From Bacteroidota bacterium (GTDB taxonomy: Bacteria; Bacteroidota; Ignavibacteria; Kapaibacteriales; UBA2268): a DNA stretch of 64,000 nucleotides. The DNA is taken from NCBI GenBank assembly GCA_021824625.1, contig JAKAKE010000186.1:3995-67994 (forward strand), given 5' to 3'. The position numbers and the translations under genes were made by a program. This document shows positions 5,680-35,227 of the stretch, one piece after another. The notes below the pieces were generated by a model that was not told the DNA's origin, did not search any database, and saw only the letters and a program-made list of their open reading frames with translations. Each line of letters starts with the position of its first letter. Within the stretch, counting starts at the first letter, position 1.

Positions 5680-7077
5680 ATGTTTTTTAGAAAAATTATA
5701 TTTATTAAAATATCTCTCCTTTTGATTACATTTTGCAGGTTATTTTCACTTGAAACATCTGACTCTAATAATGTTGTGAATAATTTCAATTTCAAAGTCA
5801 AGGGTAGTTCCATAACACAATTTGGAGCAGAAACACAAAATTATATAATACCAAATTTTCTGGCTTTACCTTCTGATTCATATTATTCAAACATCCGAAA
5901 TAGATTGCCCGATAAACTATTGAGGAATGTGACAGACAATCCACTAATTCACGGAGCTGCATACATAGATTTTAATTTGGGATTTAAGTATCACGGTATT
6001 TCAATTTCAACTAATTTAATTGCTGAGCATCGGGGTATTTCTTATGGTCCATTAAGTACAAAAAGTATGATTGTATTTCCGAAATATAAATTTGCCTTTG
6101 ACACAAGCATTGGTTTATTTGATGATAGGATGAAGGTTGGCGGCTCAATTGGCAATTATGATAATCTGAAACTTTATGAGGGCTTGACTATTTACAATAT
6201 GGATTGCCAGGGTGCTGAATTATATTTGAATTGGAAAAATATAAAATTTCAATTTATCTCTGTTGGCGATTTAGTAAATGGTATTGGTCTAAATCTTGAT
6301 GCTACTCTCGATTGGATATTATCTGTTCACAATTTAAAAATAACTGATAATGTTAATATGGATATTCAATTGGGGTATTTTGAAAATCTGTTGGTATTAC
6401 GTTCAAGAAACAGTGACGGGTTTTATATCTCAGCCAATCTATATAATGAGAAAATTCAAATTTATTCGCAATTTTCTGTCAGGGATTTGAATAATCTGAG
6501 TGATTTGAAATGGCGTTCAGCCTTTCTCATTGGAATTAAATCAAATTTTGAGAATGAGAATATGATAATAGGATTGAAGGGTGAAATACGTTATTATGGG
6601 AGTAATTTTAACAAGGATTATTATGACCATACAGTTAGTTTCAGAAAAATGCCCAAAACGTCAGAAGGTATTAACCCGCGTGAATATAGTTATAATAATA
6701 CAATAGGAGATAATCTGTATCCCTTGTATGCTTATGAACGTCCTTTCAGTCAGTGGGCTGTATATACTGAATATCAGAAGAAGAATGCTCTTGGTTTAGT
6801 TTTTCTTATAAACAGTAAATATTATTTTTATGATAAATTATTTGCTAATGCTGATTTTGATTTGAATTTTATAAGAGCAAGTTATGAACCTGGTTTTTGG
6901 TATCCATTTTATAATATCGGCTTGGGTTGGGAGCCGGTAATAAATAATTTCATTAATTTGAGTTTTACGAATAAAGGGATGAACCTTGATAAACATTATC
7001 CTACTTTTTATTTGTATGATTCTCCAAATATAATGATAAACCTGCATTTCGATTTCGAGTTAATAAAAGGGAAATAA
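5680..7077 (+). CDS. Hypothetical secreted, beta-rich (possibly outer-membrane) protein
   Basis: N-terminal hydrophobic signal-like segment. Y/F/N/G-rich alternating pattern throughout. No motif recognised. Confidence 0.45.
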   Translation: MFFRKIIFIKISLLLITFCRLFSLETSDSNNVVNNFNFKVKGSSITQFGAETQNYIIPNFLALPSDSYYSNIRNRLPDKLLRNVTDNPLIHGAAYIDFNLGFKYHGISISTNLIAEHRGISYGPLSTKSMIVFPKYKFAFDTSIGLFDDRMKVGGSIGNYDNLKLYEGLTIYNMDCQGAELYLNWKNIKFQFISVGDLVNGIGLNLDATLDWILSVHNLKITDNVNMDIQLGYFENLLVLRSRNSDGFYISANLYNEKIQIYSQFSVRDLNNLSDLKWRSAFLIGIKSNFENENMIIGLKGEIRYYGSNFNKDYYDHTVSFRKMPKTSEGINPREYSYNNTIGDNLYPLYAYERPFSQWAVYTEYQKKNALGLVFLINSKYYFYDKLFANADFDLNFIRASYEPGFWYPFYNIGLGWEPVINNFINLSFTNKGMNLDKHYPTFYLYDSPNIMINLHFDFELIKGK

Positions 7078-21813: not shown

Positions 21814-23409
21814 ATGGCAAAAGGGAAGATTTTAATTGTTGAGGACCAAGCGGTAGTTTCTCAGAATATAAAGCTGATGCTTAAGTATAATGGCTATGAG
21901 GTAAGTGGAATTGCAGCTACGGCAGATGAAGCGATTCAGATGATAAGTGAAGAAAAACCCGATTTAATTGTTATGGACATAGCCCTTCCGGGCAAACTCG
22001 ATGGGATTGACGCTACGAATATTATCACCGAAAAATGGAATATTCCTATTATTTATCTCACTGCACATTCTGATGAAACAACACTTCAGAGAGCAAAAAA
22101 TACTCATAATTATGGCTTCATTATCAAAGATATTGACCTGAAATCACAGATTCCAATCTTTATTGAATTTGCATTATTCAAACATAAGCTAATCGAAGAA
22201 CAGCAAAATGCCTCCAAAGCCTTGTCAGAAAATGAAGAAAAGTTCAGAATGATTGTTAATTCGGCAAGAGACGGCATTATTTTCATTGATAAAATGGGAT
22301 TAATATCTTTCTGGAACAACGCTTCTTTGGAAAAATTCGGTTATAATGATATAACATCTGAGAATGTTTTCTTTTGGCAGATTATCTCAATTCCCAAAAT
22401 TAAACTTTACCAGGAAAAGTTTGCTGATATTGGTGCAAAAGGCGAAAGCGGACTTGTCGGTAAAATGGTTGAATTTGTTGCTATAAGGAAGGATGGCTCG
22501 ACTTTCCCCGTTGAAATTATTTTTTATCCGATAAAAATCCAAAACAACTGGTACACTTGCTGTATTATTCGTGATATAACAGTTCGCAAGGAAGCAGAAG
22601 AAGAAAATGCTAAACTCATCGAGGAATTGCGAATATCGAGGGAAATGGTTGAGCAGAATGCTAATGAATTATTGCTTGCTAACGAAAAATTATACGAATC
22701 GGAAGAAAGCCTAAAAATCCTGAATGCTAATAAAGACAGATTCTTTTCTATACTTGCTCATGACCTTCGTGGACCTTTTCAGGGCTTGCTCGGCTTTTCA
22801 AATATACTGCATAAAGACTTTAAAAAAATGAAAACAGAAGAAGTACAGGATATAGTTGATGACCTTTATCATTCTGCAGAGCAAATTTACAAATTACTTG
22901 ACCATCTGCTTCTGTGGTCAAGAATACAAAGGGGGGTACTTGAATTTAAACCTGAACCCTGCAGTCTGAATAATATTGTCGGAGTCAATATTGATTTATT
23001 GAAATACCTGGCAAACCGAAAAAACATCGAATTAATATCGGAAATTAATGAAAATTTTGAATTCACTTCCGACCCGAACATGATTAATACCGTCCTTAGG
23101 AATTTGATTTCTAATGCTATTAAATTCACCGGAAGCGGCGGTAAAATTATAATATCTGCTAAAGACACAAAAGACGGTTTCTTTTTAGTTGGTGTCAGCG
23201 ACGATGGAATTGGTATTCTTGAAGAAGATTTGCAGAAACTTTTTAAGATTGACATGTATTTTACCAGTCCCGGAACTTCGGGAGAAAAAGGAACAGGATT
23301 AGGATTGGTTTTGTGTAAGGATTTAATTGAAAAATGCAAGGGTGAGATATTTGTCGAAAGCCAGGTTGGCAAAGGTACGACCTTTTCTTTTAAAATTCCG
23401 TTTAAATAG
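21814..23409 (+). CDS. Hybrid sensor: receiver + PAS + HisKA + HATPase_c
   Basis: KILIVEDQ...DLIVMDIALPG receiver. PAS-like middle region. SILAHDLRGPF H-box. GTGLGL G2 box. Confidence 0.85.
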   Translation: MAKGKILIVEDQAVVSQNIKLMLKYNGYEVSGIAATADEAIQMISEEKPDLIVMDIALPGKLDGIDATNIITEKWNIPIIYLTAHSDETTLQRAKNTHNYGFIIKDIDLKSQIPIFIEFALFKHKLIEEQQNASKALSENEEKFRMIVNSARDGIIFIDKMGLISFWNNASLEKFGYNDITSENVFFWQIISIPKIKLYQEKFADIGAKGESGLVGKMVEFVAIRKDGSTFPVEIIFYPIKIQNNWYTCCIIRDITVRKEAEEENAKLIEELRISREMVEQNANELLLANEKLYESEESLKILNANKDRFFSILAHDLRGPFQGLLGFSNILHKDFKKMKTEEVQDIVDDLYHSAEQIYKLLDHLLLWSRIQRGVLEFKPEPCSLNNIVGVNIDLLKYLANRKNIELISEINENFEFTSDPNMINTVLRNLISNAIKFTGSGGKIIISAKDTKDGFFLVGVSDDGIGILEEDLQKLFKIDMYFTSPGTSGEKGTGLGLVLCKDLIEKCKGEIFVESQVGKGTTFSFKIPFK

Positions 23410-27228: not shown

Positions 27229-28200
27229 ATGCACAAAATATACGGAATTTTAAAATTTACTGTTATTTTAATTCTATTGATTTATACTACTTCTTCTCAG
27301 GCGAATGAATTCAGGATATTAGCTGCAAAGGGACAGGTTCTAATTCAAAAGAATAGTAAAGGAAATTGGGAAAAAATCTATACAGGCGGGCTAATCAATG
27401 CTAATGACAAAATTAAGCTTATGCCCGGCTCCTACCTGGGTTTAGTACACAGCAAAGGTAGAACAATCGAGTTGAAGAAGGATGGCATATATTCGGCAAT
27501 TAAGCTTTCCAAAGAGCTTGCCGGTATGAAATCAACCATGACCGGTCAACTTGCCAATCTAATAGTAAACGAGGTGGGAAGCTCATCCGGTTTTTTATCC
27601 AATAAGGATAGTAATAAATCAATGAATCAAACCGGTGCCGTCAATAGAAATATTGACTCAGATTTAATCAAATCAAACTCATTACTGGTTTCTGCCGACA
27701 AAATACTTATTCTGTCTCCAATCAAAGAACACTTGCTTAATCAGATAGTCGTTTTCGAATGGAAAAGATTACCATCCGAAAAGGAATATGAATTTTATCT
27801 GACAGACCGATTTGACAGACTTGAGTTTTCGAAAACAACTTCAGATTCCTTTCTTTTGGTCGATACAAAACAATTGAAACTTGATAAAGGTATGTATTAT
27901 TTTTGGAGAGTAGTTGTCAAAAATAAGCCTGAATTTAAATCCGGCGAAGCCTGTTTTATGATTTTAACCGACCCTGAAATATCAGGATTAAACGATACAT
28001 TGAAGCTTCTTAAAGAAGAATTAGGAAGCGAACAAACCGCTACATCAAAACTTATGTATGCAGTATTTTTTGAGAAATATAATCTTATCAGTGAAGCTAA
28101 GGCTTCTTATCTCGATGCTTTAAGAATCGCTCCGGATGTCGAGGTTTATAACACCCTTTATAATAATTTCCTGAGAAGGCATTATCAGTCAGGATATTAA
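27229..28200 (+). CDS. Secreted FecR-like + DUF928-like protein, paralogue 1
   Basis: Signal peptide (..SSQA/NEF). FRILAAKGQV...SYLGLVHSKGRTIELKKDGIY. YEFYLTDRFDRL...LKLDKGMYYFWRVVV...EACFMIL. C-terminal helical APDVEVYNTLYNNFL. Confidence 0.6.
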   Translation: MHKIYGILKFTVILILLIYTTSSQANEFRILAAKGQVLIQKNSKGNWEKIYTGGLINANDKIKLMPGSYLGLVHSKGRTIELKKDGIYSAIKLSKELAGMKSTMTGQLANLIVNEVGSSSGFLSNKDSNKSMNQTGAVNRNIDSDLIKSNSLLVSADKILILSPIKEHLLNQIVVFEWKRLPSEKEYEFYLTDRFDRLEFSKTTSDSFLLVDTKQLKLDKGMYYFWRVVVKNKPEFKSGEACFMILTDPEISGLNDTLKLLKEELGSEQTATSKLMYAVFFEKYNLISEAKASYLDALRIAPDVEVYNTLYNNFLRRHYQSGY

Positions 28201-28237
28201 TTATTTTGTATGTTTAAATAATTATGGAAATAAGAAA

Positions 28238-29167
28238 ATGAAGAAAATATTATTTTACATTTCTCTATTGCTCATATTATTTGTTTTTACTGCCTCAGCC
28301 AAAGATTTTAAATTCTGTGTTCTTGGTAAAAAGGGAACAGTTCAGGTAAAATCTTCAAAATCTAAAAAACTTGAAGATGTCAAGACAGGTGATAAATTGT
28401 TCTTGAATGACAATCTTGTTCTGGTAGAAGGTTCATATATCGGTTTGGTTCATTGTAACGGCAAAACGATTGAAATTACCAAACCCGGGAATTACAAAAT
28501 ATCTGCTTTATCGAATACCGCAGAAGGCAAAAAGACTTCGGTTTTACCTAGAATTGCAGATATGATTTTTCATAATGTAAGTAGAAATAACGAGCTGTTG
28601 TCTGACAAAGACCAAAAAACCCAGATGAAATCCGGAGGTTATATTGAAAGAGGAATAGGTGAAGTAACATTACCGATTATCTCACCGTTGAAAAACCATT
28701 ATATCAATAAAAATATTTCACTTTGCTGGAACAGTTACCATGGCAATCCTGATTTTGAGTTCAAGCTTATGAACAGATTTAATAAAGTTTTGTTGACCAA
28801 AACATCAACTGATACATGTATCAACTTCGATGCCGAATCTCTTAAACTTGAAAAAGGAACTTATTATTTTTGGACCGTAAATCTTGCAAATGATGATGAT
28901 TACAAATCGCAGGAGGCATGTTTCAAGCTGTTGACTGACAATGATATTTCATTATTAAATGATACTCTTAAACTGCTTCAGGAGGAGTTGGGTAACGATA
29001 ATTCTGCACCGTCTGAAATTGTTTATGCCTATTTCTTCGAGCAGTATAATCTTTATGACGAAGCTATAAATGCCTATCGTCAAGCAATTAAATTAGCTCC
29101 GGATATATATGATTATGTTGTGTTATATGAAAACTTTTTAACAAGAGCAAAATTTTCCGGAAGGTGA
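28238..29167 (+). CDS. Secreted FecR-like + DUF928-like protein, paralogue 2
   Basis: Signal (..ASA/KDF). FKFCVLGKKGTV...SYIGLVHCNGKTIEITKPGNY. FEFKLMNRFNKV...LKLEKGTYYFWTV. APDIYDYVVLYENFL. Confidence 0.6.
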   Translation: MKKILFYISLLLILFVFTASAKDFKFCVLGKKGTVQVKSSKSKKLEDVKTGDKLFLNDNLVLVEGSYIGLVHCNGKTIEITKPGNYKISALSNTAEGKKTSVLPRIADMIFHNVSRNNELLSDKDQKTQMKSGGYIERGIGEVTLPIISPLKNHYINKNISLCWNSYHGNPDFEFKLMNRFNKVLLTKTSTDTCINFDAESLKLEKGTYYFWTVNLANDDDYKSQEACFKLLTDNDISLLNDTLKLLQEELGNDNSAPSEIVYAYFFEQYNLYDEAINAYRQAIKLAPDIYDYVVLYENFLTRAKFSGR

Positions 29168-29178
29168 AATAATTTTCT

Positions 29179-30117
29179 TTGAAAAAAAAAGGGTCAAACA
29201 TGAGGTTATTATTTATTTTACTTTTTATTGTTTTGTTACTTAACCCTCTTCAGGCACAAAACTATGATTTTTGTGTGCTTGGTAAAGTGGGGACAGCACT
29301 TGTTCAATTAAACGGGAACAAGGATTGGACTGAATTGAAAACCGGAGACCAGTTAAAGCGAAATGATATTATTTCAATAAAAGACAATTCCTACCTCGGA
29401 CTTGTCCACTCTTCCGGTAAAACTATCGAGTTAAGACAATCCAGCCAATATAAAGTATCCAAGCTGGATGATGATTTATCAGAGAGCACAACTTCAATTC
29501 TCCCTAATCTTATCGAAGTAATCTTCGGAAAAAAATCCAACATCAAAGATATTTTGGAATCGAGGCGTAATAAAAAAGTTTTTTCAAAAGGTGCTATTGA
29601 GAGAAGCATTGAAAACGAACAAATAACCATACTTTCTCCAAAAAAAATCATTCTAATTGCCGATGATGTCGCATTATTATGGAGTAAGTTCACTGCAGAA
29701 GGTAAATATGAAATCAAGATAACCGACAGATTCAACAAGCTCATTTTCTCAAGAGCTGTTGATGACACTACTATTTCAATAAATCAGAAAGAGTTGAATT
29801 TAGACAGAGACCAGTATTATTTTTGGCGGGTGAATTTATTATCAAATCCTGAAATCAGGTCAGATGAAGGTTGTTTCCTGTTCTTATCCGATAAGAGAAT
29901 TGCAGAGATTAAGAAAAATATCGAACAAATGAAAAAGGAAATAGGAGGTAAAGAGACTTCGGTATCGAAGATTCTTATGGCATTCTATTACGAAAACAAT
30001 CTTCTTGTGAATGAAGCAGACAAAGAATTCAGGGAGGCATTAAACATGTCTCCGGATGTTGCCGATTACATTGATTTATACGATGCATTTAAAATGAGAA
30101 TGAATATTCGGAGGTAG
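29179..30117 (+). CDS. Secreted FecR-like + DUF928-like protein, paralogue 3
   Basis: Signal (..LQA/QNY). FCVLGKVGTA...SYLGLVHSSGKTIELRQSSQY. YEIKITDRFNKL...LNLDRDQYYFWRV. SPDVADYIDLYDAF. Confidence 0.6.
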   Translation: MKKKGSNMRLLFILLFIVLLLNPLQAQNYDFCVLGKVGTALVQLNGNKDWTELKTGDQLKRNDIISIKDNSYLGLVHSSGKTIELRQSSQYKVSKLDDDLSESTTSILPNLIEVIFGKKSNIKDILESRRNKKVFSKGAIERSIENEQITILSPKKIILIADDVALLWSKFTAEGKYEIKITDRFNKLIFSRAVDDTTISINQKELNLDRDQYYFWRVNLLSNPEIRSDEGCFLFLSDKRIAEIKKNIEQMKKEIGGKETSVSKILMAFYYENNLLVNEADKEFREALNMSPDVADYIDLYDAFKMRMNIRR

Positions 30118-30124
30118 TAAAAAT

Positions 30125-31162
30125 ATGAAATTTAAAAATATTATTATGATGATGATTATTTTGTTATCATATTTAAGCTTAAATGCCCAGGAGCCGGAAT
30201 TTAGAGTTCTTGGAAAAAAAGGAAATGTTAATTATCAGTCAAAAAGCAGTGGCTGGACGGATGTAAAAACCGGAGATAAACTTTTTAAAAATGACAAGGT
30301 CAAAGTAAGCGGAAATTCTTACTTGGGCCTTGTTCACTCATCAGGTAAAACTGTTGAAATAAAAAAAGAAGGCACATATAATATTTCAAAATTGGCTAAG
30401 GATGTTTCTTCATTCCGAAGTTCAACCACCCAGCGATTTGCTAAATTTGTCGTTGATGAAATAACTTCAGGAGATGATTTGCTCAAACAAAAGAAATATA
30501 AAAGGAGCATGGAAAATACCGGTGCAGTCGACAGAGCGACAGGCGGGGATATTAGTTATATGGCAACTTTTTCTTCTTTGTCCGGTACCGACCTTTCGCA
30601 ATATTCTGCATTAAACGAGGCTATTGACTGCCTGGTTAAAACCGATAAAAATTCCATCAGGATTAAATATCCGAGGACTTCTTATGTAATTAGCAGTGAT
30701 GTTGACTTTGTCTGGTTTAAGAATAATACTGTCTCAATTTATGAATTTGTAATAGTTGACAGGAATGATAATATATTATATTCAACCAAAACATCGGATA
30801 CAACACTCCAAATTAATCTTTCCGGGTTAAAACTTTTAAAGGGCATGAATTATTACTGGTTTCTTCGAAGCAATGATTTGAAATCAGACCAGTATTGCAT
30901 CAATTGGATAAATGATTATGACATGAAGAGGCTCGATGAAGATTTGGAGCCTTTGCTGGACGGAATGGCAAAAGGTAAGGATGCAGTAACCCTGATGCTG
31001 CTAGCTTCGATTTATGAAGATGAGAATATAATGAACAAGGCTATTGATGCGTATCAAGAGGCTCTGCGCCTCGAACCTGATGTTGACGGATACAGAACCT
31101 TATATGCACGATATCTGAGCCGTATCGGGTTAGATGATGAAGCAATCAGAATATTGAAATGA
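30125..31162 (+). CDS. Secreted FecR-like + DUF928-like protein, paralogue 4 (carries an extra insertion of about 35 aa)
   Basis: Signal (..LNA/QEP). FRVLGKKGNV...SYLGLVHSSGKTVEIKKEGTY. YEFVIVDRNDNI...LKLLKGMNYYWFL. EPDVDGYRTLYARYLSRIGLDDEA. Confidence 0.6.
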   Translation: MKFKNIIMMMIILLSYLSLNAQEPEFRVLGKKGNVNYQSKSSGWTDVKTGDKLFKNDKVKVSGNSYLGLVHSSGKTVEIKKEGTYNISKLAKDVSSFRSSTTQRFAKFVVDEITSGDDLLKQKKYKRSMENTGAVDRATGGDISYMATFSSLSGTDLSQYSALNEAIDCLVKTDKNSIRIKYPRTSYVISSDVDFVWFKNNTVSIYEFVIVDRNDNILYSTKTSDTTLQINLSGLKLLKGMNYYWFLRSNDLKSDQYCINWINDYDMKRLDEDLEPLLDGMAKGKDAVTLMLLASIYEDENIMNKAIDAYQEALRLEPDVDGYRTLYARYLSRIGLDDEAIRILK

Positions 31163-31163
31163 T

Positions 31164-32432
31164 TTACAATGCTTTTTTACCTATATCTTTTCTGAAATAC
31201 ATGTTTGAGAAATTTATTTTTCTAACGGCATTGTAGGCTTGCTCTAAAGCTGTTTTCAGTGTGGTACTTACACCGGTAACACCAAGAACTCTTCCTCCGT
31301 CACTAAGGAGTTTCCCTTCATTTAGTCTTGTACCTGAATGATAAACTATTGCTCCTGTTTTTTCAACTTCTTCGATACCTGTTATTTCAAATCCTTTTTC
31401 GTATTCATCGGGATAACCCTCGGAAGCAAGGATAACACAGCAGGCATGTTTGTTTGAAGAGTTTTTAATTGCTGATGTATCAATCTTTCCGCATGCTGCC
31501 GAATAAAGCAGTTTGGCAAAGTCTCCTTCGAATATTGACAAAACAGACTGGGTCTCGGGGTCACCGAAACGAACATTGAATTCTACAACTTTTGGTTCTT
31601 CGTCATGTATCATCAATCCCGCATACAAACAACCGGTGAAAGGAAATCCTTCTGCTCTCATGCCTTCAATTGCCGGTCTGAGAATTTTCTCATGGACTTT
31701 ATTCATAACACTTTCTGTAACAATTGGAGCAGGTGAGTAAGCACCCATGCCTCCGGTGTTTTTCCCGAGGTCATCATCCATGGCTCTCTTATGGTCTTGC
31801 GATGACGGTAGAGTGATGTAGTCTTTACCATCACAAATTGCAAGTATGGAAGCTTCAACACCCAATAAAAACTCTTCTATAACAACTGTTTTACCGGCAT
31901 CGGAAAACAATCCATCAAACATGCTGTCAAGTGTTTGCTGTGCTGATTGTATTTCCTGGGCAATGATTACACCTTTGCCTGCGGCGAGTCCGTCTGCTTT
32001 GAGGACAAGAGGAAATTTACAGGTATTAAGATATTCATCGGCAGTCTTTTTGTCTTCTTCTGAAAATATTTTATATTTGGCAGTTGGAATGTTGTGCCTT
32101 GCCATGAAATCTTTAGCGAAACCTTTTGACGATTCGAGCCTGGCGGCTTGTTTTGAGGGACCGAACACTTTAATTCCATTTTCAATTAATATATCGGTTA
32201 TACCGTCGGCAAGTGGTTTTTCGGGGCCAACAACAACTAAATTTATATTATTAGATTTACAAAAATCTATAATGAAATTAAAATCAAATTTTTGAATTTC
32301 TGCTTTAGGTGCAAACTGCCAAATCCCGGGATTACCCGGATAACTGTATAAGTTGTCCGATGAAGGCGATAGCCTTAAGGCACGTGCTATTGCATGTTCC
32401 CTGCCGCCACCGCCTATTAATAAAATATTCAT
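31164..32432 (-). CDS. purD: Phosphoribosylamine-glycine ligase
   Basis: MNILLIGGGGREHAIA...VLKADGLAAGKGV...ATP-grasp motifs. 422 aa. Confidence 0.92.
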   Translation of the reverse strand: MNILLIGGGGREHAIARALRLSPSSDNLYSYPGNPGIWQFAPKAEIQKFDFNFIIDFCKSNNINLVVVGPEKPLADGITDILIENGIKVFGPSKQAARLESSKGFAKDFMARHNIPTAKYKIFSEEDKKTADEYLNTCKFPLVLKADGLAAGKGVIIAQEIQSAQQTLDSMFDGLFSDAGKTVVIEEFLLGVEASILAICDGKDYITLPSSQDHKRAMDDDLGKNTGGMGAYSPAPIVTESVMNKVHEKILRPAIEGMRAEGFPFTGCLYAGLMIHDEEPKVVEFNVRFGDPETQSVLSIFEGDFAKLLYSAACGKIDTSAIKNSSNKHACCVILASEGYPDEYEKGFEITGIEEVEKTGAIVYHSGTRLNEGKLLSDGGRVLGVTGVSTTLKTALEQAYNAVRKINFSNMYFRKDIGKKAL

Positions 32433-32779: not shown

Positions 32780-35227
32780 GTGATTGACAGTAGGATGGAG
32801 CCTGAGTACAAAGGTATTGTTCCGAAAGGGCCGATGATTGATATTGAAAGGTTTATTTCTGAAAGAAGGAATGCCCAAGATTTTCTTCAGTATTCCGGGG
32901 AGATGCACAGAACTTTTTTCGATGATTTACCGATAGGTGCTTACAGAACTACTGAAGACGGGAAGTTTTTAAGCGTGAATAAATCATTAGCTTTACTTCT
33001 GGGGTTTGATAACACGGAAGAGATAAAAAATTATAATGCGGGGGATTTTTATTTAAGGTCTGAAGACAGGACAGCACTGATTAAGAAGCAAAAGAAGGTT
33101 TATGGTATTGTTAAAGCAGAATATAAAGTAAAGCGTATGGATGGAGATGTAATTTGGGTCAGGGATAATGGAAAAGTAATTTATAAGGATGACGGCAGTG
33201 TTGATTACCTGGAAGGTGTCATTGAAGATATCACAAGCCAAAAATTAGCACATGAATCGTTAATCGAAAGCGAAGTTAAGTATAGAAAACTTTTTGAAAA
33301 TTTATATGATATATATTTCAGTTTAACCATTGACGGAGAATTCACTGAAATGTCTCCGTCAGCCGAACCAATTTTAGGATTCGGAATAGAGGAAATAATT
33401 GGTAAATCAATTTTTGATTTTGTAGATAACAGGCAATTCCTGAATGATGCTTTATCTGATTTAAAAAAATCATTCAAAGTACTTAATCGCACCCTCCAGA
33501 TAAAAAATAAAAAGGGAGAAATAATTCACCTTCTTGTGAATGCTTATTTCTATAATGATTATATTAGAAATAAAAAAAGCATTGCAGGAATTGCAAGAGA
33601 TATAACAAGACAAAAGCAAAATGAGATTGACTTACTTGAAGCACGTGAATATGCCGAATTGATTAACCGTGTTACTCCAAGTTGTACTTTTACTATTGAT
33701 AAACTTGGGAATGTTACAAGTTGGAATGAAAGAACTGCCATCATAACAGGTTATCCTGCTTCAGAAATTATTGGGAAGAAATGTACTCTCTGTCTATGGA
33801 ATAACCATGAGAAGCAATGCGCATTTTTTAATGATAAAATCAAAAAACCGGTTTTTGGCAGAGAAGTGGAAATCAAAACCAAGAGTGGTGAAGTGAGAAT
33901 AATTGCAGTCAATTTAGATTTACTTCGTAATTCTTTTGGTGAAGTAATCGGAGGCATCGAAAGTTTCGATGATATCACCGACAGGATAAGAACTGAAGAG
34001 GCTTTATTCTGGCAGGCAGGTGTTAATCATGCTATTGCTGATTTATCCAAAGCGATTATTTCCTTACCACTGGTTAAAGATACCTCAAAACTAATTCTTG
34101 AACATGCGAGAAGACTTACTAATTCTACTTTCGGTTTTATTTCGGTTTTTAATCAAGAAACTTTGAAATTCGAGATTTCGGCAATAATGACAAAGCAGAA
34201 CAAGGATTATATTCATTGGGATTATTATCCTGATGATGTTGAATTTAATGAGTTCTGGTATTGGACTTATATTAATAAAAATTATATTATGACTTCATCA
34301 ATTAAATCTGATGAAAGACTTAACTCGATTTATCAATACAATAAAGATATTGAACATTTTATTTCAGTACCTTTGGTATCCAACTCTGAAGTTATAGGTA
34401 TAATATCAATTGGTACAAAGGAAAAAGGTTATGGGGAAGATGACCTCGAAATTTTAAACCGCATGGCATCTTTGTTTACTGTTGTCCTTCAAAGATTTAA
34501 AGCAGAGGAGGACATAAAAGCCGCATTAGCAAAAGAACAAGAGTTGAGTGAATTGAAATCGCGTTTTATTTCTATGATTTCCCATGAGTATAGAACTCCT
34601 CTGACAGCTATTGCTTTAACAAAAGATTTGCTTAAGGAGCATTGGGACAGAATTGATTTTCAGACGAGAGCAGAGCAGTTGGATAAAATTCAATACTCGA
34701 TTGACGTAATGAATTCACTGCTGGATGATATTATTATGTACAGCAAAGTCGAGGTAGGAAGGCAGATTTACAGGCAAAGGAAAATTAATTTAAGCCAGTT
34801 TTGCCTCGATATTGTTAATGAAATGCAATATACTGCTAAGTACAAGGTGAAAGTCAATTACAAATTTGAAGGTGATAATAAAATCGTTTATTCCGATGAA
34901 AACCTTGTCAGGCAAATTATAAGGAATCTGATTTCAAATGCAATTAAATTTTCTTCTCACGGGTCTGAAGTTGATTTTAATATCGTTTCAAATGATAATC
35001 AGATACTTTATACTGTTACCGATTATGGTATTGGAATTCCCGATGATGACAAGGAAAATATATTTGAACCCTTCTTCAGGGGGAAAAATATTGTTACAAC
35101 ATCGGGTACTGGCTTAGGCTTGTCAATTGTCAAGAATGCTGTAAATATTCTCGGGGGCAATGTTTCATTTAATAGTGAAATTGGCAAGGGGACTTCATTC
35201 ACAGTAGTAATTCCAGGTAAAAAGTAG
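32780..35227 (+). CDS. Multi-PAS/GAF sensor histidine kinase
   Basis: Several PAS-like blocks, a GAF-like block, H-box SMISHEYRTPL, N box NLISNAIKFS, and GTGLGLSIV. Confidence 0.85.
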   Translation: MIDSRMEPEYKGIVPKGPMIDIERFISERRNAQDFLQYSGEMHRTFFDDLPIGAYRTTEDGKFLSVNKSLALLLGFDNTEEIKNYNAGDFYLRSEDRTALIKKQKKVYGIVKAEYKVKRMDGDVIWVRDNGKVIYKDDGSVDYLEGVIEDITSQKLAHESLIESEVKYRKLFENLYDIYFSLTIDGEFTEMSPSAEPILGFGIEEIIGKSIFDFVDNRQFLNDALSDLKKSFKVLNRTLQIKNKKGEIIHLLVNAYFYNDYIRNKKSIAGIARDITRQKQNEIDLLEAREYAELINRVTPSCTFTIDKLGNVTSWNERTAIITGYPASEIIGKKCTLCLWNNHEKQCAFFNDKIKKPVFGREVEIKTKSGEVRIIAVNLDLLRNSFGEVIGGIESFDDITDRIRTEEALFWQAGVNHAIADLSKAIISLPLVKDTSKLILEHARRLTNSTFGFISVFNQETLKFEISAIMTKQNKDYIHWDYYPDDVEFNEFWYWTYINKNYIMTSSIKSDERLNSIYQYNKDIEHFISVPLVSNSEVIGIISIGTKEKGYGEDDLEILNRMASLFTVVLQRFKAEEDIKAALAKEQELSELKSRFISMISHEYRTPLTAIALTKDLLKEHWDRIDFQTRAEQLDKIQYSIDVMNSLLDDIIMYSKVEVGRQIYRQRKINLSQFCLDIVNEMQYTAKYKVKVNYKFEGDNKIVYSDENLVRQIIRNLISNAIKFSSHGSEVDFNIVSNDNQILYTVTDYGIGIPDDDKENIFEPFFRGKNIVTTSGTGLGLSIVKNAVNILGGNVSFNSEIGKGTSFTVVIPGKK

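Follow-up and report, generated by a model that had tools for sequence, protein, structure and literature searches.

Within a 64,000-nt stretch of the Bacteroidota bacterium contig JAKAKE010000186.1 (assembly GCA_021824625.1; GTDB class Ignavibacteria), hereafter the window, four tandem genes encode diverged paralogues of a large and unnamed protein family, immediately preceded by two genes for CHASE2 membrane proteins (Table 1). All coordinates are positions in the window, and the four family genes are numbered paralogue 1 to paralogue 4 in gene order. From CHASE2-A to paralogue 4, the intergenic gaps across the six genes are 57, 8, 37, 11, and 7 bp, paralogue 1 starting 8 bp past the CHASE2-B stop codon, and the cluster abuts the convergent gene purD. 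Because the gaps are this short and the cluster ends against purD, the two CHASE2 genes and the four paralogues probably constitute a single six-gene operon. CHASE2-A is composed of an N-terminal transmembrane helix, a periplasmic CHASE2 domain, and C-terminal transmembrane helices, with no cytoplasmic output domain. CHASE2-B, 36% identical to CHASE2-A, has one N-terminal and three C-terminal transmembrane segments, and likewise no output domain. These two upstream genes are the main clue to the function of the paralogues; neither they nor the C-terminal tetratricopeptide repeat (TPR)-like region of the paralogues featured in the initial annotation of this DNA.

The listed TTG start of paralogue 3 (29179-29202) is probably seven codons too early. 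An ATG at position 29200 would yield a product of 305 aa, which equals the length of the paralogue 3 orthologues, and this start is preferred for that reason.

Table 1 Features of the CHASE2–paralogue cluster and its surroundings (window positions unless residues are indicated).
Feature	Position	Strand	Evidence or remark
CHASE2-A, 398 aa	24716..25912	+	Pfam CHASE2 E 2.4e-24, residues 23-307; hydropathy
CHASE2-B, 416 aa	25970..27220	+	Pfam CHASE2 E 6.1e-18; hydropathy
Paralogue 1, 323 aa, MtxA-like periplasmic protein	27229..28200	+	Open reading frame (ORF), AlphaFold2 (AF2) model, Foldseek
Paralogue 2, 309 aa, architecture as paralogue 1	28238..29167	+	ORF, alignment, tree
Paralogue 3, 312 aa from TTG	29179..30117	+	ORF, orthologue lengths
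Paralogue 4, 345 aa	30125..31162	+	ORF, alignment, tree
Signal peptide, paralogue 1	residues 1-24		AF2 model/sequence
Small beta-sandwich (N-domain), paralogue 1	residues 26-96		AF2 model
Helix, paralogue 1	residues 104-124		AF2 model
Disordered linker, paralogue 1	residues 121-154		Predicted local distance difference test (pLDDT) below 50
Ig/Fn3 beta-sandwich, paralogue 1	residues 160-245		AF2 model
TPR-like region, four helices, paralogue 1	residues 248-318		AF2 model
N-domain hairpin motif S-Y-L-G-L-V-H-S-x-G-[KR]-T, paralogue 1	27430..27465	+	
Hairpin motif equivalents, paralogues 2-4	28433-28468, 29389-29424, 30317-30352	+	
Linker motif T-G-A-V-N-R, paralogue 1	27631..27648	+	
Linker motif equivalents, paralogues 2-4	28634-28651, 29587-29604, 30518-30535	+	
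Hybrid response-regulator/PAS/histidine-kinase gene	21814-23409		Flanks cluster
purD	31164-32432	-	Convergent
Multi-PAS/GAF histidine-kinase gene	32780-35227		Flanks cluster

Four old paralogues retained under constraint

The four products can be aligned over their full length, with pairwise identities of 40.1, 33.4, 32.5, 33.4, 31.5, and 30.9%, paralogue 2 being nearest to paralogue 1 (40% identity). Each of them matches the hidden Markov model (HMM) of the family with an E-value of about 1e-100, so that their similarity lies far beyond chance. This similarity is unevenly distributed along the proteins, with identities among paralogues of 37-53% in the N-domain, 24-42% in the Ig domain, and 11-37% in the helix and linker that separate them. 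The linker of paralogue 4 additionally carries an insertion of 35 aa (residues 143-177, nt 30551-30655), and the fourth-position genes of related genomes encode products of about 345 aa, the same length as paralogue 4.

The four-gene array is found in unchanged order in a ‘Bacteroidetes’ metagenome-assembled genome (MAG; loci L004/L008), in Ignavibacteria RIFOXYC2 (L006), and in an Ignavibacteriae MAG (L007). Loci L004, L006, and L007 share the complete arrangement of two CHASE2 genes and four paralogues, including CHASE2-A orthologues at the equivalent position, and L004 also shares the flanking genes of the window. A neighbour-joining tree places every paralogue of the window with its positional counterparts (four genomes), and since the paralogues thus form orthologue groups by position, the duplications predate the split of these genomes. 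The same tree indicates that the two-copy arrays of Cytophagales arose separately from the four-copy array. Each paralogue is under purifying selection, with a ratio of nonsynonymous to synonymous substitution rates (dN/dS) of 0.08-0.11 against its closest orthologues, and dS between paralogues is saturated. A recent, near-identical duplication was considered and is ruled out by this saturation together with the four orthologue groups. The initial annotation, made by eye, had described four tandem paralogues that align end to end and are only partly identical, that vary most in a linker bearing related motifs (here located as TGAVNR, GGYIER, KGAIER, and TGAVDR in paralogues 1 to 4), that include an insertion of about 35 aa in the fourth member, and that go back to old, retained duplications, and this description is borne out on every count by the computed values. 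The array is a plausible candidate for a specificity family; otherwise, it is an ordinary case of old and retained paralogues.

A modular periplasmic architecture

The AF2 model of paralogue 1 was built from an alignment of 62 sequences. With a mean pLDDT of 85, it resolves a signal peptide, a small N-terminal beta-sandwich, a helix and disordered linker, an immunoglobulin (Ig)/fibronectin type III (Fn3) beta-sandwich, and four TPR-like helices (Table 1), with block-mean pLDDT values of about 87-97 across residues 160-318. All four paralogues begin with a Sec signal sequence and contain no further hydrophobic segment. Lipoprotein status can be excluded, as no lipobox cysteine follows the signal peptides. 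The earlier view of these products as secreted modular proteins, with an N-terminal beta domain, a variable motif-bearing linker, and a beta-sandwich middle block, is therefore retained, and structure prediction combined with Foldseek identifies the middle block specifically as an Ig/Fn3 sandwich.

When scanned against Pfam and NCBIfam, the four paralogues yielded no significant match, with sub-threshold TPR matches at the C-terminus and weak retention_LapA matches at the N-terminus. Structural comparison was more informative: the best Foldseek match in the PDB is the C-domain of MtxA (4Z29; E 3.7e-7, probability 1.0, target-normalised template modelling (TM) score 0.59, 165 columns), followed by many Fn3 domains. 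The C-terminal helices match TPR proteins when family profiles are compared with OGT and designed-TPR chains (E 2e-8 to 1e-7; about 2e-8 to 4e-8 for the OGT TPR region), and single paralogue sequences stay under the Pfam TPR thresholds. For the N-domain, modelled separately (pLDDT 84), the sole notable Foldseek match is 5IX9 (E 3.5e-3, probability 1.0, target-normalised TM score 0.77, root-mean-square deviation 1.4 Å, 66 columns), which is the RIN plug of MpIBP, an ice-binding RTX adhesin from Marinomonas; this periplasmic domain is conserved across LapA-like adhesins. The retention_LapA matches (NF033682) lie in the N-terminal part of all four paralogues, at E 0.003-0.2 and 11.8-17.7 bits against a cut-off of 50. 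Sequence-profile searches of the PDB with four family alignments (E ≤ 10) found TPR proteins only, and neither 4Z29 nor 5IX9.

We searched 1.84 billion cluster representatives at 50% identity exhaustively with HMMER. At E ≤ 1e-30 this retrieved 685 proteins, a count that rose to 1488 with the limit relaxed to E ≤ 1e-10; the family hence comprises at least 685 clusters. The best 150 matches are all close, full-length proteins of about 300 aa, and no functional name or precomputed Pfam domain is attached to any of the family members listed. Searches of a 5.8-billion-protein collection with the N-domain only or the C-terminal half only yielded nothing beyond fragments and fellow family members, all lacking a Pfam annotation, and reached no protein annotated as FecR, DUF928, or MtxA_C; an N-domain HMM run against all ORFs of 86 loci and the window found no match outside the family. 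The family is thus large, unnamed, and absent from Pfam and NCBIfam.

Two conserved elements in the N-terminal half

The most striking conserved element of the family is a short motif in the linker, with the consensus [ML]-x-[AV]-T-G-[AS]-V-x-R-[GAS]. Among 146 diverse representatives, the arginine is present in all 146, the glycine in 139, the valine in 131, and the threonine in 124, and R140 is one of just three invariant columns of the whole family alignment. The motif sits in a segment with pLDDT below 50, i.e., one predicted to be disordered, which suggests that it may serve as a docking peptide or a processing site. Trypsin cleavage of the MtxA linker falls at roughly this position.

The most conserved structured segment is a hairpin motif in the N-domain (Table 1). 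Columns that are at least 90% conserved across the same 146 representatives amount to 10 of 71 in the N-domain, 6 of 75 in the TPR-like region, and 2 of 88 in the Ig domain.

A distant relationship to MtxA

MtxA of Magnetospirillum gryphiswaldense is a 313-aa protein with a signal peptide (residues 1-24), a beta-rich region (residues 25-110), and a flexible linker, cut by trypsin before L142, that leads to Ig-like and TPR-like domains; the mtxA gene is followed by a gene for a CHASE2 adenylate cyclase (PMC4439547). The family described here resembles MtxA (MGR_0208; PDB 4Z29; Pfam MtxA_C, PF22121) in its Sec signal peptide, its length of about 310 aa, its succession of N-terminal beta-rich domain, flexible linker, Ig/Fn3-like domain, and TPR-like helices, and its position next to a CHASE2 gene. 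Sub-threshold sequence matches are in line with this resemblance. Pfam scans at E ≤ 1 of two member sets (62 and 146 members, 208 in total) detected MtxA_C in 4 and 16 members, respectively, with a best E-value of 0.0018, making it the most-matched Pfam family besides generic TPR.

The differences are also considerable. Identity in the structural alignment with a window protein is about 13%, and the ‘histidine corner’ L-x-P-G-x-H of MtxA is not in the window proteins, where the strand reads L-K-L-D-K-G-M-Y-Y-F-W, with tyrosine for histidine. Of the KDDND and MRPLLI motifs of MtxA orthologues, KDDND is not present in the aligned window paralogues. The CHASE2 partner of MtxA has an adenylate cyclase domain and is encoded downstream, whereas that of the family is output-less and encoded upstream. 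Moreover, family genes occur in arrays of two or four paralogues, and their hosts are Ignavibacteria and Cytophagales rather than magnetotactic Alphaproteobacteria. Overall, the family and MtxA are distantly related, with a sequence link that is weak but consistent. A periplasmic protein of the MtxA type encoded next to CHASE2 is already known; this version is set apart by the output-less CHASE2 partners, the arrays of two and four, the Ignavibacteria and Cytophagales hosts, and the lack of PF22121 membership.

Recurrent pairing with output-less CHASE2 proteins

A survey of family loci, restricted to one genome per species, returned 80 loci, 74 of which had enough flanking sequence to be informative. 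Hosts include Ignavibacteria-type MAGs and many Cytophagales (Cyclobacteriaceae, Fulvivirga, Roseivirgaceae, Imperialibacter, Chryseolinea, Chryseosolibacter), most of the loci coming from this one order. In 66 of the 74 informative loci, the family gene is immediately preceded on its own strand by a CHASE2-only ORF of median length 434 aa (maximum 478), the median gap between the two being 55 bp. One CHASE2 gene is combined with one family gene in 45 loci and with two in 16, and two CHASE2 genes are combined with four family genes in 3 loci in addition to the window. In the divergent member P0359 (L086), the family gene overlaps the end of the CHASE2 gene by 4 bp. The CHASE2 partner of P0359 (L086 3959-6004) is 681 aa long, and its roughly 350 residues past the CHASE2 domain match no Pfam family; this tail may represent an output or membrane region that is as yet uncharacterised.

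A clade with a family gene and no adjacent CHASE2 gene (L003, L039, L077, and L082-L085; gene near position 6000 or 8000) has the order MeaB (- strand), family gene, PAP2 phosphatase, and riboflavin-synthase-like gene. The CHASE2 pair in L001 has MeaB as a neighbour too, an arrangement suggesting that the clade lost CHASE2 from the MeaB-adjacent position. Another locus, L009 (CAZXYS010000006.1), is labelled ‘uncultured Hyphomicrobiales’ and carries a CHASE2 gene, two family genes, and a second CHASE2 gene. It was considered as a bridge to Proteobacteria and dropped, since its GC content of 38% and the C-terminal tails of its neighbouring proteins, which resemble type IX secretion signals, point to mis-binning; the contig probably derives from the Bacteroidota/Ignavibacteriota group.

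Candidate accessory partners of CHASE2

We propose, with a probability of roughly 0.6, that the four proteins are periplasmic accessory partners, i.e., co-sensors or adaptors, of the co-encoded CHASE2 proteins and relatives of MtxA. An accessory sensing role is probable because MtxA-like proteins sit beside genes for CHASE2 membrane sensors. Related arrangements have been described elsewhere: Burkholderia encodes a LysM-FecR periplasmic protein beside a CHASE2 kinase (PMC5192318), Nostoc punctiforme reportedly has a gene cluster that includes both a DUF928 gene and one for a CHASE2 sensor (PMC5587647), and in S. meliloti a cAMP pathway driven by CHASE2 cyclases targets SMc02177, which has a FecR domain, and the periplasmic SMc02178, signal perception also requiring the outer-membrane protein NsrA (PMC5498481, PMC13001267). 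A CHASE2 protein acting with accessory proteins has precedents in Burkholderia and S. meliloti. The Burkholderia LysM-FecR protein and SMc02177 resemble the family as secreted accessory proteins encoded beside a CHASE2 gene, and their role may be analogous; they differ in that neither PF04773 nor a FecR/PupR fold was detected in the family, and in that their CHASE2 partners have kinase or cyclase outputs.

Mechanistically, the proteins would be exported via Sec to the periplasm and act there as accessory subunits of CHASE2-A and CHASE2-B. The conserved N-terminal sandwich and the linker motif could form a constant end for docking to the CHASE2 domain in the periplasm, while the variable Ig and TPR surfaces might bind a different ligand or partner protein in each paralogue. 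As the CHASE2 proteins have no cytoplasmic output, the signal would pass sideways in the membrane to other proteins, or the complex would have an envelope role other than signalling. The description of the proteins as MtxA-like and CHASE2-linked is much firmer than this mechanism.

Several observations weigh against an accessory sensing role or against the MtxA relationship on which it draws. PF22121 has no match at E ≤ 1 in the four window paralogues, its gathering threshold is not reached, and the family profile does not recover 4Z29 by sequence even at E ≤ 10; because these sequence tests fall short, homology to MtxA rests on fold, layout, genomic context, and sub-threshold matches. Deletion of mtxA gave no phenotype, so that the reference protein is itself without a known function, and almost no homologues were reported at that time (PMC4439547). 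CHASE2 proteins lacking an output fit the classical sensor model poorly. Few positions are fixed in a group-specific manner (15 overall, including 8 within the Ig domain), and differences in specificity among the paralogues are putative. Finally, in 8 of the 74 informative loci, mostly from one clade, the family gene has no adjacent CHASE2 gene.

The structure of the N-domain bears on a different possibility, namely that the proteins are envelope anchoring or processing modules instead of sensors. The N-sandwich would then be a plug or anchor like the retention domain of LapA and MpIBP, the linker motif a protease site that releases the Ig-TPR portion, and the CHASE2 protein a scaffold or a regulator of cleavage. 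The N-sandwich has the same fold as the RIN plug (MpIBP 5IX9; LapA retention module NF033682) and is likewise followed by a flexible segment, no other solved structure gave a notable match, and the weak retention_LapA matches fall at the same place in all four paralogues. An invariant arginine in a disordered linker, whose MtxA equivalent is readily cut by trypsin, and CHASE2 proteins devoid of output domains would both suit such a role. We nevertheless consider it unlikely. All of these proteins bear a Sec signal peptide, and their length of about 300 aa contrasts with the thousands of residues in RTX adhesins; they contain neither RTX repeats nor a type 1 secretion signal and do not count among the substrates of type 1 secretion. 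A TolC-type partner gene is lacking, and neither a protease gene nor a TolC-like one is present among the annotated neighbours in L001, L003, L004, L005, and L086. The site cleaved by LapG is T-A-A-G. The linker motif differs from it, and the retention_LapA scores are far under the cut-off.

The initial annotation had instead read each protein as a FecR-family sensor domain fused to DUF928, two families that are separately encoded in cyanobacteria and Leptospira and that a fusion would link functionally. The hairpins of the N-domain follow an alternating-hydrophobic pattern that does, by eye, resemble FecR-type domains, and FecR-domain and DUF928 proteins both adjoin CHASE2 genes elsewhere. 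FecR (PF04773) nonetheless has no match in the paralogues (E ≤ 1) or in the family and N-domain consensus sequences (E ≤ 10), is not among the 25 most frequent Pfam families at E ≤ 1 in either member set, and no FecR/PupR structure is among the top 50 N-domain Foldseek matches listed, which leaves the RIN plug as the only notable match and the FecR assignment without support. For DUF928 (PF06051), a family of mostly cyanobacterial proteins, the evidence is a sub-threshold hint. The consensus matches at E 0.03-0.11 with 12.7-14.3 bits against a gathering score of 26 (profile positions 72-176 of 184), P0359 matches with 13.7 bits (profile positions 32-98), and matches occur in 8 of the 208 members (4 in each set; best E 7e-4), never at the gathering score; the four window paralogues have none. 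These sub-threshold matches are collinear over the Ig and helical region, and a relationship of the family to DUF928 is possible on this sequence evidence. The 184-position model nevertheless matches only the C-terminal Ig and helical half in the profile comparison and leaves the N-sandwich and linker uncovered, and MtxA_C, the best structural match, was also matched more often (20 versus 8 of the 208 members). As for novelty, the layout already exists in MtxA (PMC4439547), and the family itself extends to at least 685 clusters. A FecR–DUF928 fusion consequently appears quite improbable.

It is also conceivable, if very unlikely, that the proteins act as generic TPR adaptors or chaperones in the periplasm, their adjacency to CHASE2 reflecting inherited gene order and not a shared function. 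In favour of such an explanation are the clade that keeps its orphan gene between MeaB and PAP2 with no adjacent CHASE2, the MeaB gene that flanks the pair in L001 too, and the origin of most loci in one order, Cytophagales. Against it stand the recurrence of the pairing in Ignavibacteria, in Cytophagales, at the locus of P0359, and for MtxA in Magnetospirillum, each with its own set of flanking genes, the short gaps or gene overlap, and copy numbers that scale together (1+1, 1+2, and 2+4). An accessory partnership with CHASE2 thus remains our preferred reading.

Genes and signals around the cluster

Two histidine-kinase genes flank the cluster (Table 1), both of which are syntenic in L004 and not in the Cytophagales loci. 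The stop codons of paralogue 4 and purD are 1 bp apart (31162-31164), leaving no space for a separate terminator. Neither an extracytoplasmic function sigma factor nor a TonB-dependent receptor, the genomic companions expected of FecR, is encoded next to the cluster, where the neighbours are the CHASE2 genes, histidine kinases, an exonuclease, and purD. Scans of the window for tRNA genes and Rfam families both came back empty, and a scan for sigma-70 promoters and terminators was uninformative for this type of organism.

Implications for CHASE2 signalling

Among the extracellular sensor domains of bacterial kinases and cyclases, CHASE2 is a common one, with signals, ligands, and a mechanism that are largely unknown, and MtxA, the only protein encoded next to a CHASE2 gene to have had its structure solved, is likewise of unknown function. 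The locus described here places MtxA-like proteins in a large unnamed family that is tightly coupled to output-less CHASE2 proteins in two lineages, and Pfam MtxA_C and DUF928 may belong together. A tentative and more speculative generalisation would be that CHASE2 domains commonly sense via dedicated periplasmic partners built from a beta-sandwich, a flexible linker, and Ig and TPR domains, with MtxA, DUF928 proteins, and this family as versions of one theme, and with the T-G-A-V-x-R motif docking into, or being cleaved at, CHASE2. The widespread output-less CHASE2 proteins of Ignavibacteria and Cytophagales, with one, two, or four partners, might then represent an undescribed envelope module that either signals laterally in the membrane or does not signal via any cytoplasmic enzyme, and in which arrays would confer combinatorial specificity. 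The linear linker motif and the conserved N-domain provide candidate contact points, and a membrane protein with one to four soluble partners offers a simple, testable system for determining what CHASE2 binds.

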